Source: a virus
Lineage: Duplodnaviria > Heunggongvirae > Uroviricota > Caudoviricetes
DNA length: 25,964 bases
IMG/VR virus record: IMGVR_UViG_3300032327_001521
Direction: 5' to 3' (one strand)
Positions 1,838-25,963 of the stretch are shown piece by piece. Under the pieces are notes generated by a model. It had not been told where the DNA came from. It did not search any database and worked only from the letters and a program-made list of their open reading frames with translations. How positions within the stretch are numbered: position 1 is the first letter of the stretch; each line of letters begins with the position of its first letter. A program made the translations under genes and the position numbers.

Positions 1838-3109
1838 TTATGCTCTTCTTTTAAGAGCGTCCAGATAATTACTTGAGTAACCTCTTAGACTTTCGTTCAC
1901 TTGTTCTAACGAAATATAACCCTCTTTACCTTGGCCTTCGTTAATAACTTTTTTATTTATATCGGCTTGTTGTGCAATTCTTTCATTAATTCCTCTTAAA
2001 TCGCGCGAATCCCAAAATGTTTTTGCTTGATATGGAGTATTAATAACGACAGTTGATGCTTGTGAAGCAATCCAATTACGCTCACGATCAGTCATGCTTT
2101 CAAAAAGGTTCTTGTATTTCTCTGGCATAAACTTAACGTATGCTGGAGTATTTTCAACCTCTTTATTCATAACTGCCTCCATGATATTGATAACCTCTCC
2201 TTCTGTGAAGAATATGGCCCCTTTCATGGTCTCAACAATTGCAGACTTAGTAGACTGCTCAAGAGAATAGAATTTTTGCTTGTTTGATTCACTAAGCAGT
2301 TTTAAGAACGGGTACTTATTTTCAAGAACCGCATTTGCTGAATTTGATTTAATGTGAGATAGGATTCCGTCTACTGCACTTGCTAGCTCATCAACTCCAG
2401 ATGTTTCAGAAACTTCAAAGCGTGCGCTTTCGTTAAGCTTCTTAACGTCAGAAAGAAGTTTTCGAGTTTTAAGATTTGTATTTGGAGTAAGCTTTTCATT
2501 CATAGCCTCTGCGATATACTCGGAATAGGCAATTCCCTTTTGAAGATTTTCGCCAAGATACTCAGAATACTTGATAGCTGCATCAAGATTTTCAGCAAGA
2601 TAGTTTGAGAATTTAATACCCTTTTCAGCACTTTCAGCAACATACTCGGAATACTGGATTCCTTTGTCAACGTTTTCTGCAAGGTAGTTAGCATAGGCAA
2701 TATTCTTTTCTACTGCTTCGGCAATGTATTCGCCATAGTTGATAGATTGATTTACCTTTTCGCCTAGATAGTCGGAATATTGAATATTCTTTTGGATTTT
2801 TTCGCCAAGATAATCAGAGTAGTCAATTACGTTGTTAACCTTTTCGGCAACGTGCTCAGTATAGCCAATTCCCTTATTCAACATTGTTGAAAGGTAGTTA
2901 GAATACCCGACCATTTTCTCTAATTCTCCAGCTAGGTAGTTTACGTACTCTACTAGTTTATTGTTTACGTCTGCGCTCCCAGAATTTTCATTTAAGGATT
3001 TTAGACCGGCATTGTTTTTCGAGAGGCTTTCCTGAAGAGAATCGAATTTCTTCTTCACCAACTGCGAATACTGATTCATTTCCTCTCTAGATACAAAGTC
3101 ATTAGCCAT
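1838..3109 (-). CDS. Putative nested in-frame scaffolding protein starting at internal Met236 (MANDFVSREE...)
   Basis: In-frame ATG at 3107-3109 preceded by A-rich ACAAAATAATAACAAAAAC and by ATAAATAA at 3144-3151, at the protease/scaffold boundary. Confidence 0.55.
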   Translation of the reverse strand: MANDFVSREEMNQYSQLVKKKFDSLQESLSKNNAGLKSLNENSGSADVNNKLVEYVNYLAGELEKMVGYSNYLSTMLNKGIGYTEHVAEKVNNVIDYSDYLGEKIQKNIQYSDYLGEKVNQSINYGEYIAEAVEKNIAYANYLAENVDKGIQYSEYVAESAEKGIKFSNYLAENLDAAIKYSEYLGENLQKGIAYSEYIAEAMNEKLTPNTNLKTRKLLSDVKKLNESARFEVSETSGVDELASAVDGILSHIKSNSANAVLENKYPFLKLLSESNKQKFYSLEQSTKSAIVETMKGAIFFTEGEVINIMEAVMNKEVENTPAYVKFMPEKYKNLFESMTDRERNWIASQASTVVINTPYQAKTFWDSRDLRGINERIAQQADINKKVINEGQGKEGYISLEQVNESLRGYSSNYLDALKRRA

Positions 3110-3814
3110 GTTTTTGTTATTATTTTGTGTTGGAATGTCAGAATTATTTATTCTGTATATTTTCACAGAATCCTCAAAGTTAAAACTCTCGGAAATCTCT
3201 GTAAGAGTATTTGTAATAGCTGTGCTCTTTAATCCGTCAAGCGATTCGAATAGCATTGAGTAATTGGAGCCTAGGCTCTCAGAAACCTGGCTAAGAGCAG
3301 CTTGTGAGAAACCTGGTTCAGCTACTAGATCATATGTGAAGATTTTCTGTAACTTTACTTTGCCGCCTTCCATTACTTGACCTGCAGCTCTAGACGAGGT
3401 TGAGATTGTACAACCTGACTCAACTAGAGTCTTTGCAATTCTTCCGCATGGCGTGTCTAGTACCTTAAGTTTAATTCTAACGGTATTTGATGACTCATCA
3501 TACTTTAATGACTCAACAACGTGAGACACATTCTTTAGAGAAACATCAAAGCTTTGTGGATGATCCATCTCGCCAAAAAGTTGACCCTTATTGATTTTTT
3601 CATTAAGGTAACTTAGATGAGGTAAGTATTCCTGCTTCTCGTAGATTCTGTTGTTTTCATTACGTTGTCCGAAAACAGCGCAAATACCTTCAAGGATAAG
3701 CGTCCCGTCATTCGCCTTTGAAACGTTCAACGCTTCATTAACCCTCTCAATGATGAACACATTGTTATCAGGGAGGCTCGTACTGTGCAATAATTTTGGT
3801 TTAGCGCTAGTCAA
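1838..3814 (-). CDS. gp21: Prohead core protease (T4 gp21-like) fused to a gp22-like scaffolding region with 14-aa repeats
   Basis: N-terminal ~170 aa have LEGICA, NENNRIY, GEMDHP (catalytic His), VSH, DTPCG, STSSRAAG (catalytic Ser), TYDLVAEPGF; the rest is coiled-coil-like with YSEYLAE-type repeats; TTG start. Confidence 0.9.
   Translation of the reverse strand: MTSAKPKLLHSTSLPDNNVFIIERVNEALNVSKANDGTLILEGICAVFGQRNENNRIYEKQEYLPHLSYLNEKINKGQLFGEMDHPQSFDVSLKNVSHVVESLKYDESSNTVRIKLKVLDTPCGRIAKTLVESGCTISTSSRAAGQVMEGGKVKLQKIFTYDLVAEPGFSQAALSQVSESLGSNYSMLFESLDGLKSTAITNTLTEISESFNFEDSVKIYRINNSDIPTQNNNKNMANDFVSREEMNQYSQLVKKKFDSLQESLSKNNAGLKSLNENSGSADVNNKLVEYVNYLAGELEKMVGYSNYLSTMLNKGIGYTEHVAEKVNNVIDYSDYLGEKIQKNIQYSDYLGEKVNQSINYGEYIAEAVEKNIAYANYLAENVDKGIQYSEYVAESAEKGIKFSNYLAENLDAAIKYSEYLGENLQKGIAYSEYIAEAMNEKLTPNTNLKTRKLLSDVKKLNESARFEVSETSGVDELASAVDGILSHIKSNSANAVLENKYPFLKLLSESNKQKFYSLEQSTKSAIVETMKGAIFFTEGEVINIMEAVMNKEVENTPAYVKFMPEKYKNLFESMTDRERNWIASQASTVVINTPYQAKTFWDSRDLRGINERIAQQADINKKVINEGQGKEGYISLEQVNESLRGYSSNYLDALKRRA
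1953..1961 (-). promoter_or_regulatory. Putative late promoter TATAAATAA for major capsid gene, embedded in the scaffold 3' end
   Basis: Exact T4 late consensus TATAAATA about 137 nt upstream of the capsid ATG. Confidence 0.55.
2495..2947 (-). repeat. About 11 tandem 14-aa (42-nt) repeats, consensus YS(E/D/N)Y(L/I/V)(A/G)ExxxKxIx
   Basis: YVNYLAGELEKMVG / YSNYLSTMLNKGIG / YTEHVAEKVNNVID / YSDYLGEKIQKNIQ / YSDYLGEKVNQSIN / YGEYIAEAVEKNIA / YANYLAENVDKGIQ / YSEYVAESAEKGIK / FSNYLAENLDAAIK / YSEYLGENLQKGIA / YSEYIAEAMNE. Confidence 0.95.
3144..3151 (-). promoter_or_regulatory. Putative internal late promoter ATAAATAA for nested scaffold
   Basis: Motif about 35 nt upstream of internal ATG 3109; encodes INN in the linker. 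Confidence 0.5.
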
Positions 3815-3831
3815 TTTGATACGACTTTTTT

Positions 3832-3841
3832 GTTATTTATA
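3832..3841 (-). promoter_or_regulatory. Late promoter TATAAATAAC upstream of prohead protease
   Basis: Exact T4 late consensus in the intergenic gap, 18 nt before the TTG start; a second ATAAATAAC at 3876-3884 overlaps the dnaJ stop. Confidence 0.7.
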
Positions 3842-20942: not shown

Positions 20943-21362
20943 TTATTTAAGTTGCAATAGGTATTGAACCTTGTTTTTAAGATCTGTGATTCCATCTGCT
21001 AGGTTAAATAGTTCAGAATCTTTTTCTCGATCAAATAGCTTACAGAAATTTTCAGTTAAAGCCTCGTCTACCAGATCAAAAAATACCTGGCGAGCCATGC
21101 TATAGTCGTAAATTTGAATTGAGGCTTGGCCAAATTGCAGTTGATCTTTGCCATACTTACCAGCAATGGACTCAATAAGAGTGTCCATCTGCTCAATAAA
21201 CTCTTCATAGAACATGCCAAAATGACGGTGCTCAGTGTCTAAACCGGTCTGCCAGTGTAGAATTTTAGCCTGGTCAGCAATCTGCATTAGTGATAGCATA
21301 AAATAGGCAATTGAGACATCTTGGCCTCCTTGTGGTTCTGTTAGGTCATCTAGTCCAAACAT
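20943..21362 (-). CDS. Ferritin/Dps-like four-helix protein (DUF5856-like)
   Basis: KILHWQT...EHRHFGMFYEEFIEQMDTLIESIAGKYG...ELFNLAD...NKVQYLL. Confidence 0.8.
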   Translation of the reverse strand: MFGLDDLTEPQGGQDVSIAYFMLSLMQIADQAKILHWQTGLDTEHRHFGMFYEEFIEQMDTLIESIAGKYGKDQLQFGQASIQIYDYSMARQVFFDLVDEALTENFCKLFDREKDSELFNLADGITDLKNKVQYLLQLK

Positions 21363-21615: not shown

Positions 21616-24456
21616 CTAATACTCTTCAATAGTGTCCTCTAGATCTTCTTCAAGTTCTTCATTTAGCCCTGCTGTGACTAAGTTACACCTAGGAACAGAA
21701 TCTGATGCAAGTTTAAATGCAAGCTTACCATCCTCAACTGCTGTTTTAAATTCATCAGCTGTTTCAATTAGGCTATACCTATCTCGATCAAGGCCTATAA
21801 ACATAAGGCTTTTGCCCTTTCCGAGAGTCTTTAAGTACTCCATGCCTAGTGCAATACCTATTGACTTGTTTATTAAGACTGCACTGCTCCAATCAATTTC
21901 ATCAGATGATTTGAATAGACCAGGGTACAGATCACTTATAAAATCAAATGCCATTTCTCTTGCTTCTGGGTCGGTGTCTGGTGAAACAGCAAATAGCATC
22001 TTTGCCCACGGTCCGCCAGTCTTAACATCAAGTATGTCACCATACCTGTCAATTAGGGCTTGACCTGCTTTTGATTTAAACATTGCCTCCTTTTTTGCTC
22101 TTGATGAATATGCTGCACTTGCGAGCTGCGCGCCACTCTTACTACTCATCTTAACCTCAATTAGTTGAGATTCAATATAGACGTCCCCATTTTTATCTTG
22201 AGTATTAATGCGACCGTCTTTTAAGAAAACTGCAATTGGGATTTCGCCTGGCCCCATTGATACATTTGATCGAGTATCAGTCAATGCCATAATCTCGTCT
22301 TTTAATTCATCACTAATTGGGACCTCACTAAATAGCTCACTCAGCGACCCTTTAGAGGTAAGGTCGTCTAGTGTAACAGTTGGATTTTCTAAATAGTCAA
22401 GCAGTTCATCTTCTTGACCTAGCACCTTTGCATCATGAATAATTGACTTAACTGAATTAATTGGAATATTCTTGTCAGTTAGGAGAGATTTAATCCCCTT
22501 ATCTGATTTACGTGATGAGTGCTTTGCCTGTTTTAATAGAGCTGAAATTACAGCCTTGCTCAGGTTAGGTAGGATCCTGGTCAATTCATCAATATCAGGC
22601 GCAGTCTCTACTGCACTGTCTGTCTCGACCGACTCATTGAGCTTCTTGCTAACATCACGATTTAAGTTAAAGAACTCGGAATGAATTGGAGCAGGCGTAT
22701 TGGCCTTAAATCCAATATAGTCGCCATTACGAATTGAATCCATAATAGATGTTTTGGTTAAACTAACCGGCAATTCAATTAGTTTAAGATCCTTTCTAAA
22801 ATTTAGGTCTCTTGACCGTTTTTTAGCCAGTTCCATCTGCATTGCAATATCCTTTACTCGGCTCTTTGTTCCAGCTATTACAACTGGTTCAAAATCTGGC
22901 TTTACTGCTCGGAGAAGGCTTTCAACCTCGCCATCTGCTACAACCCTGTGGCCAACCATTGTACTTGGATTATGACCAGTTAACTTGGTTAGGCAATTTT
23001 CAAGTGTGCCCTTTGCAATTGGCTTGCCTTTTGTGGTTTTACCATTGTGCACGCAAATGAGTAAACTTGGAAAACCGTTTGACTCAGATAACTTTTGGGC
23101 AGCTTTAACATGACCTGGGTGAATTGGCTGAAAGTCAGAAACAATTAGGTTTACACGCTTAACCGCTCTCTCCTTTTCAGGCACATTTGCAAATGTCTCA
23201 AAGTATCCCGGCTCATCACTGTCTCCAACAAATTCATTAAATGTCGGAAAGTAATTTTCAAATACGGCATCTCCCATTATTACTTTGCTAATTTTATCAA
23301 TCTGTGCATTGAGGTTGTCCTTCATCTGCTTGGTAAACAGTGTTGAATTTACCCGAGTCTTCTTTTTACGAAAAACATTTAGTAAAATTCGATAGATCTC
23401 CTTGAAATTTGTATTGGACTCAATTGTTTTTATAACCTTTGGGTTCTTAACCAGATCAAAGTTAACTCCAAACTCAGCACGTGTCAAGAATTCCGGTATT
23501 TGGATATCCAGGTCAGAGTATTTTTCACCAAATTCTGAAATAAAATCCTGGTAGATATGGTTAATTAGAGAAATATACTTCTCCTCATATGAATTGCCGC
23601 TTAGCTTAATATCACGAAGCTCAGCAATTGAATACCTCTCAATAAAATTCATTAGGTCAATTGCAATAATCCAAATATAATCATCTGACTTTTTCTGGAC
23701 CTGATCCTTGGCCTTTTCTTTGGCCCTTGCTTGAAAGACTGGATCAACCAGTTTAGCTAAGAATACTGAATCCTCGTCATCTGAGTTTGGATCATAAAAC
23801 CTAAATACTAGACCCTCGATATCCTTGTCCAGCGTATCTCTAAGAAACGAGGCCCGCATGTCTGGATTAAGGACTGACATAATATATCGAGTAAAAGATG
23901 AGGTCTTAAATTTATCAATCAGCTCTTCAGCTGGCGTGTACGCAAACTCTTGTATCTTTTCTTTTTGAGCGGATGACAGTTTGCCTTGAAAAACAATAGG
24001 CGGCCGCTCTATTTCAAGTAGATCAGCCCATTTATCAAGGGTTCCTTTATCTTGAATGGTTTCAGCAATTTCACCTTTTTCATCAAGCACGTGAATATAG
24101 CTCAGGATTAAGCCGTTTTTAGGTAGTCGATCATATGCTATGGTCTGAGCCTTTGGGCTAGTAAACCATTCCATACCAAAATGGTAGTTTTCAGGAATTT
24201 GCTCTACTGTATCAGGCCCAAGATTCTCAAAATGACGTATAGCCGGTTCGAAGTAACGACTGAGAACACGATCAATGTACGTAATCTCAGCATTACGCTT
24301 AAAAAAACGAAATTTACCCGTTTCGGAATCCTTCTGTGCACCAAAGAAGGCTCCATCCATCTTTTCATTGACAATTACTGTTTTATTTAGTAGACCTGTT
24401 AAGAAGTCTTTTCCGCGTTTATCATAAACGTCTCGTAAGTGTGATAGTCCTGGCAT
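21616..24456 (-). CDS. Multidomain protein: RNA-ligase-like nucleotidyltransferase + HxGH cytidylyltransferase-like domain + PD-(D/E)xK nuclease-like domain
   Basis: Ligase motifs I VNEKMDG, III GMEW, IV IEGLV, V LAKLV; FQPIHPGH (HxGH); MGPGE...GDVYIESQLIEVK; acidic tail. Confidence 0.72.
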   Translation of the reverse strand: MPGLSHLRDVYDKRGKDFLTGLLNKTVIVNEKMDGAFFGAQKDSETGKFRFFKRNAEITYIDRVLSRYFEPAIRHFENLGPDTVEQIPENYHFGMEWFTSPKAQTIAYDRLPKNGLILSYIHVLDEKGEIAETIQDKGTLDKWADLLEIERPPIVFQGKLSSAQKEKIQEFAYTPAEELIDKFKTSSFTRYIMSVLNPDMRASFLRDTLDKDIEGLVFRFYDPNSDDEDSVFLAKLVDPVFQARAKEKAKDQVQKKSDDYIWIIAIDLMNFIERYSIAELRDIKLSGNSYEEKYISLINHIYQDFISEFGEKYSDLDIQIPEFLTRAEFGVNFDLVKNPKVIKTIESNTNFKEIYRILLNVFRKKKTRVNSTLFTKQMKDNLNAQIDKISKVIMGDAVFENYFPTFNEFVGDSDEPGYFETFANVPEKERAVKRVNLIVSDFQPIHPGHVKAAQKLSESNGFPSLLICVHNGKTTKGKPIAKGTLENCLTKLTGHNPSTMVGHRVVADGEVESLLRAVKPDFEPVVIAGTKSRVKDIAMQMELAKKRSRDLNFRKDLKLIELPVSLTKTSIMDSIRNGDYIGFKANTPAPIHSEFFNLNRDVSKKLNESVETDSAVETAPDIDELTRILPNLSKAVISALLKQAKHSSRKSDKGIKSLLTDKNIPINSVKSIIHDAKVLGQEDELLDYLENPTVTLDDLTSKGSLSELFSEVPISDELKDEIMALTDTRSNVSMGPGEIPIAVFLKDGRINTQDKNGDVYIESQLIEVKMSSKSGAQLASAAYSSRAKKEAMFKSKAGQALIDRYGDILDVKTGGPWAKMLFAVSPDTDPEAREMAFDFISDLYPGLFKSSDEIDWSSAVLINKSIGIALGMEYLKTLGKGKSLMFIGLDRDRYSLIETADEFKTAVEDGKLAFKLASDSVPRCNLVTAGLNEELEEDLEDTIEEY

Positions 24457-24466
24457 AGTTATTTGA

Positions 24467-25156
24467 TTAATCTAATGGTCCGTATTCTCCGCTCGCTATT
24501 CGGTCACCTAATCGAATAGATTCTGCCGAGCTTGCAGATATCTGCAATGTTGTAATCAACTGACAGTATTCCGGGTTTTCAGTCAAAAATTTTAAAACTT
24601 CACGTGTATCATAGTCTTGATATGATCGCTTTGGAATTGCAACATACTTTTGTATGGTTGTTCGCTGGGCACTAATATCCCATAGCTTAAGTACATATTC
24701 ATCAGTTGAGTCAAGTCGATTTAACTCATCAATCATTTCCTTTATTCCATTAGCCTTTGCTTCACTTGCTTCAAGTTTTAGGTCCGCAATCTCCTCCTCA
24801 GTAAACTCTTCTAGGCCAATTTGCCTTACTAGAGCGTCACGTTCATCATACTTATTATCATATGTTAACCTGTTTAGCTTAGCCTTAATCTCAGGTGTAA
24901 GTGCTCCAATTGATATTAGTCGCCTCCATAATAAGTTAAAGAATAGAGCTTCCTCTTCTTCTATTGGAACAGATCTAGAACCAAGCAAACCGCTTGGGTA
25001 AGTTATGTACTTTAAGTTTGGACACAGCTCAATAATCTTTTCTACATCCCTAATTAATATAAAGTTTTTTGATATGAGCCCAAGTCGGTTAAGTTCATAA
25101 GCTCCATCGTTTTCATTAACGAATTTTAAAAAATCCTTGATATGGTTCATTGCCAA
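24467..25156 (-). CDS. Hypothetical protein, probable internal head protein
   Basis: N-terminus MNHIKDFLKFVNE is CTS-like; preceded by ATAAATAAC. Confidence 0.72.
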   Translation of the reverse strand: MAMNHIKDFLKFVNENDGAYELNRLGLISKNFILIRDVEKIIELCPNLKYITYPSGLLGSRSVPIEEEEALFFNLLWRRLISIGALTPEIKAKLNRLTYDNKYDERDALVRQIGLEEFTEEEIADLKLEASEAKANGIKEMIDELNRLDSTDEYVLKLWDISAQRTTIQKYVAIPKRSYQDYDTREVLKFLTENPEYCQLITTLQISASSAESIRLGDRIASGEYGPLD

Positions 25157-25165
25157 TTCTTTCTT

Positions 25166-25174
25166 GTTATTTAT
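25166..25174 (-). promoter_or_regulatory. Putative late promoter ATAAATAAC
   Basis: Overlaps the kinase stop, 10 nt upstream of ATG 25156. Confidence 0.55.
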
Positions 25175-25775
25175 TAGGCTTAATGCCTAAAAGTCCATAA
25201 CAAGCGGCCTTAAACAGGTCAACTGAGGCCTGATCAAATTTGTTTTGAACAATTGTTCCATCGTTTAATCGTTCACTGCTGCCTATTAGATCAAATCCTA
25301 AACTAAAGAAATGGCTAAGATGATCTGTTTCTTGCACAGTAGAATGAGCTCCATCCCAAGTATCCTTGACGCGGGTTGTATCCGCTGTCTGTCGATCAAC
25401 TGTAACATACAGGGTTTTGCAATTCTTGAATAGGCTAGACTCAAGCACCTTCATATACTCTTGGCCAGCCGCTTCAAGATCTAATCGCTTTCTAAGAACT
25501 GCCCAAGTATAGGCTGAGATTAGGGCTCTATCAAATAGCCAAATCTTGTCCTTATACTCTGGTCGCTGATTCATTTCGAGAATTGTCATAATATTGCCTA
25601 GGCTATAATAGTGCAGGCTTGGATCAGAATCACGAGCAGCAAGGCCTAGCCACTTTACATGATCAGCAAAGTAAAATTTGTAGTACTCAAGACGCGGGTC
25701 CTGGCACTCTTCGAGAAACTGATTAATTAGAAAAGTTTTGCCGCAACCGCGAGGCCCTTCAATAAAGAGGATCAT
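25167..25775 (-). CDS. P-loop kinase, thymidylate/dNMP-kinase-like
   Basis: ILFIEGPRGCGKT Walker A; LFDRA (DR motif of TMPK-like kinases). Confidence 0.78.
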   Translation of the reverse strand: MILFIEGPRGCGKTFLINQFLEECQDPRLEYYKFYFADHVKWLGLAARDSDPSLHYYSLGNIMTILEMNQRPEYKDKIWLFDRALISAYTWAVLRKRLDLEAAGQEYMKVLESSLFKNCKTLYVTVDRQTADTTRVKDTWDGAHSTVQETDHLSHFFSLGFDLIGSSERLNDGTIVQNKFDQASVDLFKAACYGLLGIKPNK

Positions 25776-25963
25776 ATGAGTTCAATTCGTTCAAATTCAA
25801 TGGTATCTGCTAGTCTAAGCGCTTCTGCCCAGTCTATATAGATTAATTTACTCTTATCTACAAAAACAAACTTGACATCCTGGGATATTTTTGCATCTTC
25901 AAAAATTCTGGCATAGCTTATGATTTCCCAAAGAGTGTCCTCATATACAGTTATTGACTCAAT
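25772..25963 (-). CDS. Partial (3' end) ORF, possibly a HAD-superfamily phosphatase
   Basis: Not in ORF track; translates to IESITVYEDTLWEIISYARIFED...FERIELI*; ITVYED resembles HAD motif IV; TGA overlaps the kinase ATG (ATGA). Confidence 0.5.
   Translation of the reverse strand: MESITVYEDTLWEIISYARIFEDAKISQDVKFVFVDKSKLIYIDWAEALRLADTIEFERIELI

Follow-up and report, generated by a model that had tools for sequence, protein, structure and literature searches.

A phage protein joining an RNA-ligase-type domain, a remodelled NMNAT-like fold and a nuclease-like tail, and its possible part in the healing and sealing of nucleic-acid ends

Introduction

Repair of RNA is a known answer of phages to host nucleases that cut tRNA. 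When such nucleases attack in T4-infected cells, T4 Pnkp prepares the tRNA ends for T4 RNA ligase. To our knowledge, phage RNA repair so far rests on few enzymes, namely T4 Pnkp, Rnl1, Rnl2 and RtcB. In this study, we analysed a 946-amino-acid (aa) protein encoded at positions 21616-24456, on the minus strand, of a 25,964-nucleotide stretch of phage DNA (IMG/VR record IMGVR_UViG_3300032327_001521; this whole stretch is called the window). The protein, here called the ligase fusion, unites in one chain a covalent nucleotidyltransferase domain of the RNA-ligase type, a HIGH-type (HxGH) nucleotidyltransferase fold similar to nicotinamide mononucleotide (NMN) adenylyltransferase (NMNAT), and a C-terminal tail that resembles PD-(D/E)xK nucleases. 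A description of a ligase-NMNAT fusion was not found in the literature. We see about an even chance that the ligase fusion belongs to a conserved phage cassette for the healing and sealing of broken nucleic-acid ends in the cytoplasm of the infected cell, and that it carries out the sealing step.

End healing and sealing is the best reading of the locus because its cassette of HAD-like phosphatase, kinase and ligase mirrors T4 Pnkp plus RNA ligase. As in the T4 Pnkp and Rnl1 pathway, the locus combines genes for a HAD-type phosphatase with a DxDxT motif, a P-loop kinase and an ATP-type ligase. In contrast to T4, phosphatase and kinase are separate genes, the nearest solved relative of the kinase is a deoxynucleoside kinase, and the ligase, which has extra domains, resembles Rnl2 and not Rnl1.

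Results

The ligase fusion and its gene cassette

The open reading frame (ORF) of the ligase fusion is intact. Its start codon appears to be called correctly, since the N-terminus (M1, G3 and L4) is conserved among homologues. The recomputed minus-strand coordinates of all motifs quoted in a preliminary description made from the DNA letters agree with it: EKMDG at 24352-24366, FGMEW at 24166-24180, EGLV at 23806-23817 and AKLV at 23746-23757 in the ligase domain; FPTFNEF at 23230-23250, FQPIHPGH at 23110-23133 and KKLNE at 22633-22647 in the middle of the protein; and GPGE at 22243-22254, GDVY at 22177-22188, IEVK at 22150-22161 and GLNE at 21658-21669 in the tail. The three domains proposed there are supported by hidden Markov model (HMM) matches, fold and conservation. 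A sequence search of the PDB with the whole 946-aa protein gave no match.

The order HAD-like phosphatase gene, kinase gene, ligase fusion gene, all on one strand, was observed in 62 IMG/VR loci, with the HAD-like gene present in 52 and the kinase gene in 60 of them, both immediately upstream of the ligase fusion gene. In the window, the P-loop kinase of the nucleoside/nucleotide type (25167..25775, minus strand, 202 aa) was recognized by its P-loop and by a profile match to the deoxynucleoside kinase 6ybh (E 0.0056); weak AAA matches fall on its Walker A end. The HAD-like gene (25772..25963, minus strand) is cut by the window end and only its last 63 aa are present, which are homologous to the C-terminus of a 179-aa protein of a related locus (L003) that starts with ...FDFDETLF. 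HAD motifs I-IV (DxDxT, T, K, ED) are invariant in 12 homologues, and the HAD-like profile found no match in the PDB.

Relatives of this phage carry further ligases. An ATP-dependent DNA ligase of family PF01068 is encoded in 4/5 genomes, and a free-standing RNA ligase of the Naegleria/Deinococcus Rnl5 type (NgrRnl-type) was detected as well (E 1e-72 to PDB 5cot). NAD+-dependent LigA was not found in the relatives' genomes, nor was Tpt1/KptA in the 5 genomes searched. Since relatives carry a standard DNA ligase and an Rnl-type ligase, the ligase fusion seems to be an extra, specialised ligase and not a replicative one; a role as the replicative DNA ligase was ruled out by the PF01068 ligases. 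Phages with the ligase fusion, the PF01068 ligase and the Rnl5-type ligase thus carry three ligase-type enzymes.

The ligase domain, the helical domain and the connector

The N-terminal domain (aa 1-256; 23689..24456, minus strand) was assigned by Pfam, PHROG and motifs. Pfam RNA_ligase (PF09414) scores 30 bits for residues 26-236, above its cut-off of 27, and its match spans profile positions 2-170 of 171; PHROG 548 ('RNA ligase') matches with E 4e-7. Relatives exceed the PF09414 cut-off independently, with 33.6-39.9 bits. Its motifs are I, NEKMDG (K32); Ia, DRVLS; III, FGMEW (E96); IV, EGLVFRF (E214); and V, LAKLV (K235). In 20 homologues, K32 and G35 of NEKMDG, K235 of LAKLV and the DRVLS motif are invariant, D34 is nearly invariant, and positions 96 and 214 hold an acidic residue, E or D. 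A KxDG-type motif occurs in 118/121 homologues and is absent from the remaining three.

T4 Rnl2 (gp24.1) and its family PF09414 have the same order of motifs, with the KxDG lysine motif followed by Ia, III, IV and V, and the spacings from motif I to III and from IV to V presumably resemble those of Rnl2. Behind the nucleotidyltransferase core, Rnl2 has a helical domain instead of an OB fold, and the same is predicted here. Unlike Rnl2, the ligase fusion reaches its family at 30 bits only, has a single Lys in motif V (LAKLVD) and is joined to an NMNAT-like domain and a nuclease-like module; its ligase fold is one that we infer from sequence. The helical domain (aa 257-395; 23272..23688, minus strand), defined by model and conservation, is highly conserved and consists of helices throughout in the model, with a predicted local distance difference test (pLDDT) score of ~70-88. 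Among the matches listed by the structure search, all of which were filled by the HxGH domain, none covered aa 257-395. We take this domain to occupy the place of the helical C-domain in Rnl1/Rnl2-type ligases.

A conserved aromatic connector (aa 396-430; 23167..23271, minus strand; FENYFPTFNEFVG...PGYFETF), likewise defined by conservation and model, leads from there to the HxGH domain. E400, F403, P404, F406, F409, G411 and F419 are invariant, and E408 is replaced by Q in one subgroup (P0112/P0117/P0118). In a model folded without the ligase domain, pLDDT is <50 at aa 396-404 and 419-423.

The HxGH domain

The HxGH domain (aa 431-614; 22615..23166, minus strand) was identified by model and structure search. 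Its motifs are SDFQPIHPGH (440-449, with HPGH at 446-449), a basic helix ELAKKRSR and IHSEF (591-595). The model, built with 40 homologues, reaches a pLDDT of ~90. VIA-align gave Z 14.3 to 4rpi and Z 14.1 to the M. jannaschii NMNAT 1f9a (MJ0541; root-mean-square deviation 2.5 over 151 of 164 residues), and its top 16 rows are NMN and nicotinic acid mononucleotide adenylyltransferases, NadM, NadR and PPAT. Foldseek returned the M. thermoautotrophicum NMNAT (1m8f/1ej2) with template modelling scores of 0.70-0.73. At the sequence level, the family profile reaches archaeal NMNAT with E 0.03 and contact only at FQPxHxGH, and Pfam PF01467 scores 14.6-16.4 bits, below its cut-off of 21. A divergent member, P0352, aligns to residues 4-160 of 168 of MJ0541 (E 8.7e-5) and retains both GRYQPFTNGH and ISATKVR, the SxTxxR motif. 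P0352 was also considered as an architecture of HxGH domain and tail without ligase, and this was rejected: its reading frame continues to the end of the contig, and the residues upstream match ligase sequence around motif V.

Archaeal NMNAT (MJ0541; 1ej2/1m8f), NadM and NadR thus have the HIGH Rossmann fold and FQPxHxGH in common with this domain. In contrast to them, the Gly-Arg before FQP is lost. The preliminary description had noted Ser-Asp at this place, and the change proved to be general: among 119 homologues, the two residues are SD in 77, SE in 37, DK in 5 and GR in 0. The position of SxTxxR aligns to KTSIMD in the lineage of this stretch. HxGH itself is found in 94/121 homologues, with T or S variants in the others and the first His lost in about a fifth. 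The domain keeps a conserved set of its own, consisting of FQP, the second His, the KKRSR helix and HSEF, of which the invariant KKRSR helix and HSEF are new compared to archaeal NMNAT. R11 and R136 of archaeal NMNAT, of which the PDB contains mutants, hold the ATP phosphates. The doubt about the activity of this domain, raised from the Ser-Asp alone, was therefore well founded, because both arginine motifs are changed. NAD+ synthesis by the HxGH domain is doubtful, since the NMNAT motifs are lost and the Pfam score is below cut-off. It derives from an NMNAT fold and is under selection, but is probably no standard NMNAT.

These changes bear directly on a rival reading with two separate counter-defence functions. 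There, the HxGH domain would be a working NMN adenylyltransferase and the neighbouring kinase a nicotinamide-riboside kinase, together a split NadR that rebuilds the NAD+ drained by host NADase defences, and the ligase would repair RNA independently. The closest relatives in fold and sequence are indeed NMNAT, NadM and NadR, some sources name the kinase 'nicotinamide riboside kinase', and a phage NadR uniting a HIGH nucleotidyltransferase and a P-loop kinase has been described (PMC9503650). However, both arginines that clamp the ATP phosphates are missing (Gly-Arg replaced in 119/119 homologues, SxTxxR aligned to KTSIMD), the first His is lost in ~20% of homologues, and the PF01467 cut-off is not reached. 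Moreover, Nampt was found in only 1/5 relatives' genomes, and a HAD partner of the 5'-nucleotidase type would reverse the kinase step. We therefore regard a role in NAD+ salvage as unlikely.

The C-terminal tail and its modular history

The 121 close homologues include 66 short ones of 602-687 aa, which consist of ligase and HxGH domains only, and 50 with >=900 aa; the core of ligase and HxGH domains (~610 aa) is the common form. Short forms end at about aa 615-645, the place of a variable linker in the ligase fusion (22522..22614, minus strand), where the alignment after LNES varies and pLDDT is low at the model ends. Beyond it lies a helical front part (aa 646-725; 22282..22521, minus strand) with pLDDT >90 from aa 655 on, which is common to both classes of tail and to free-standing members of the family. 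It is followed by the PD-(D/E)xK-like core (aa 726-932; 21661..22281, minus strand), defined by invariant residues and the order of secondary structure. The tail ends in an acidic disordered stretch (aa 933-946 and stop; 21616..21660, minus strand; LEEDLEDTIEEY) with pLDDT <50. The tails of the homologues have the front half and the catalytic motifs in common, and two classes can be told apart by their far ends. Every class-A tail finishes in a disordered, strongly acidic stretch that has an aromatic residue close to the C-terminus (LEEDLEDTIEEY) and recalls the acidic C-termini by which single-strand-binding proteins recruit partners.

The tail model (aa 646-932) has a pLDDT of 84.5 and a predicted template modelling score of 0.77. 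In its core, a helix at GPGE (E738) precedes three strands carrying GD (D758) and IEVK (E767, K769), a helical insert and four further strands; in the model, the helix spans 738-744 and the strands 748-750, 759-761 and 764-770. In 45 distant members of the family, G735, E738, D758 and E767 are invariant, G757 is nearly so and K769 is kept in >=90%, and in 16 aligned fused tails the catalytic-type residues of the core are likewise invariant. The closest structures in VIA-align were HhaI (6uke) with Z 3.7 and HinP1I (1ynm) and MspI (1sa3) with Z 3.4, followed by PvuII, MutH, Hjc and ThaI, all of them below the noise level of the tool, although these weak similarities share one direction. Foldseek with the tail model found nothing in the PDB and only uncharacterised phage proteins in BFVD, and by sequence the tail family has no match in Pfam, PADLOC, the PDB or PHROG. 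We accept the tail as PD-(D/E)xK-like on motif, conservation and topology, not on structural score. As in members of that superfamily (HhaI, HinP1I, MspI), E...D...ExK is carried by a helix and the strands that come after it, in the order expected of such a core; unlike in them, a large insert of helices interrupts the core and a further helical domain stands in front of it, and the Z scores to them are as low as 3.4-3.7.

An exhaustive profile search yielded 333 clusters of the tail family (at 50% identity and E <=0.001), mostly free-standing proteins with a median of 359 aa. Many of these (P0248, P0251, P0256, P0258, P0259 and others) begin with a motif of ~40 aa, (I/V)xxEWSYRCxxGxPDxNN, which is absent from the fused form. 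Free-standing tail genes occur in other T4-like phages: the copy of Flavobacterium phage immuto adjoins terminase and portal genes, in one contig the gene lies between portal and prohead-protease genes, and others adjoin ferritin/DUF5856 genes. Such a DUF5856/ferritin-like gene stands two genes upstream of the tail gene in L080, and a Ferritin-family gene directly upstream in L081. In genomes with the long form, the tail family is present only as the fused domain. A word index returned short free-standing tail copies only as fragments at contig ends, and a complete short-form genome (G003) holds no member of the tail family at all. Because short-form genomes have no tail, the core evidently works without it and the tail is accessory. 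This fits the expectation, voiced beforehand, of a swappable C-terminal part, as the tail occurs in long forms only.

The nuclease-like tail also invites a reading on DNA, in which the nuclease would nick or trim DNA at strand breaks or during replication, the ligase would reseal it, and the HAD and kinase products would clean the ends. PD-(D/E)xK enzymes mostly cut DNA and leave ligatable 5'-phosphate and 3'-OH ends, the weak structural matches of the tail are DNA restriction enzymes, MutH and Hjc, and the short-form cassette adjoins DNA polymerase B and helicase. Against this, an ATP-dependent DNA ligase of the standard kind is already encoded by these phages, the family matched by the ligase domain is that of RNA ligases and not PF01068, and most family members function without the nuclease tail. 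Cutting and resealing of DNA as the function of the ligase fusion seems improbable to us.

Is the ligase fusion a polyprotein of the capsid?

It had been proposed that the chain is a polyprotein which gp21 splits into units inside the head, followed by injection. In this scenario, a late protein would enter the prohead, be cut at (L/F)NE by the T4-type protease into ligase, transferase and nuclease units, and be injected with the DNA. The gene indeed belongs to a long run of genes on one strand that extends into tail and baseplate genes, and the same stretch has a major capsid gene (86-1816) and a head-maturation protease gene (1838-3814), both of the T4 type. Some free-standing tail genes have head genes as neighbours: in one contig portal and protease on either side, in others terminase nearby. 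Candidate sites fall on domain borders with low model confidence, and [LIVM]xE plus a small residue is retained after the HxGH domain in 95/121 homologues. Packaging of an enzyme is known from T4 Alt (PMC5512222), and virion-packaged effectors such as T4 Alt and the polyvalent proteins resemble the ligase fusion as multi-enzyme chains encoded near structural genes (Iyer et al., 2017; PMC5512222). Unlike in them, no peptidase, MuF or portal fusion was found in the ligase fusion.

Other observations weigh against this scenario. An N-terminal targeting peptide ending in [LI]xE was not found; [LI]xE first appears at residue 87, and the conserved sequence of residues 1-35 is that of the ligase, with the active-site K32 as part of the enzyme. 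[LI]xE sites are common in the ligase fusion, with 18 seen against 12.3 expected. FPTFNEF lies within the invariant aromatic segment, a conserved element of the protein, and its Glu is the one exchanged for Gln in one subgroup. LNE(S) closes the final predicted helix of the HxGH domain, and even forms of 602-626 aa, which have nothing downstream, retain it. Replication genes adjoin the gene in short-form phages. The T4 late-promoter motif TATAAATA has only two exact copies, at 1954-1961 and 3834-3841, located just upstream of capsid and protease genes; its count is at chance level, and none is near the ligase fusion gene within the window. Beyond position, nothing positive was found to support the polyprotein, and packaging and cleavage in the head seem quite unlikely.

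Genomic setting

The whole stretch is phage DNA, with T4-type capsid, head-maturation protease, baseplate and sheath-like genes. Among deposited phages, its capsid protein is closest to those of the uncultured 462-kb LR756500 and of Prevotella Lak megaphages (36-37% identity). A homologue of the ligase and HxGH core is present in LR756500 as well, with 27.7% identity over residues 1-562. Related IMG/VR records have 214-270 kb, and the lineage is one of aquatic jumbo phages, with >250 protein clusters and genomes of ~215-270 kb. A cultured phage with the ligase core was not found; the search of the phage collection gave metagenomic huge phages only.

Between the kinase and ligase fusion genes lies an ORF of 229 aa with a TTG start and no family match (24467..25156, minus strand). 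It is found in L002 and in 2/62 IMG/VR loci only and is thus a recent insertion in this sub-lineage. A small DUF5856 or ferritin-like gene is located at 20943-21362, and a DUF5856 gene follows downstream of the ligase fusion in 51/62 loci.

Discussion

In this study, we observed a phage cassette in which genes for a HAD-like phosphatase and a P-loop kinase lie upstream of the gene for a ligase joined to an NMNAT-like fold and, in long forms, to a nuclease-like tail. In end healing and sealing, the HAD and kinase products would prepare the ends: a 3' or cyclic phosphate would be removed and a 5'-OH phosphorylated. The N-terminal Rnl2-like domain with its helical partner would then load AMP onto Lys32 and join 3'-OH and 5'-phosphate ends. 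The HxGH domain, a remodelled descendant of an archaeal-type NMNAT, probably binds an adenine nucleotide and may assist the ligase rather than synthesize NAD+. The PD-(D/E)xK-like module, an optional add-on that would come from a free-standing phage gene family, may cut or trim in a metal-dependent manner and leave ligatable ends. RNA appears to be the likelier substrate. DNA is a possible one as well, since the cassette of the short forms adjoins DNA polymerase and helicase genes.

Several observations weigh against end healing and sealing by the ligase fusion. The ligase call comes from the 30-bit HMM match and the motifs; a profile of its own made from residues 1-425 matched no ligase in the PDB, and hhalign of the ligase region against the neighbouring Rnl5-type ligase of a relative gave no signal. 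The nearest solved relative of the kinase is a deoxynucleoside kinase, and the only Pfam hint for the HAD-like gene is a 5'-nucleotidase; both products could serve nucleotide metabolism instead. The proximity of the short-form cassette to DNA polymerase (B) and helicase genes points to DNA as a possible substrate. The structural matches of the predicted nuclease are weak, and we know of no role of an HxGH domain in end repair.

NAD+ and the ligation intermediate AppN have an A-5'pp5'-N linkage in common. It is tempting to speculate that the HxGH domain gave up free NMN as its substrate in favour of polynucleotides with a 5'-phosphate end and acts in cis with the Rnl2-type ligase, although we consider this quite improbable. 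Potentially, such a domain would pre-adenylylate 5'-phosphate ends, or would use pyrophosphate to reverse abortive AppRNA/AppDNA. The loss of both NMNAT arginines and the gain of the invariant KKRSR helix would then mark the change of substrate.

Conclusions

The tail module of the ligase fusion defines an unannotated, phage-only family of nuclease-like proteins that comprises 333 clusters. Compared with the few enzymes on which phage RNA repair is based, this jumbo-phage lineage keeps a different arrangement, with separate phosphatase-like and kinase genes and a ligase in permanent fusion with a remodelled NMNAT fold. Should this fold act on the ends of nucleic acids or feed the ligase, it would represent a new chemistry for the HIGH nucleotidyltransferase superfamily.

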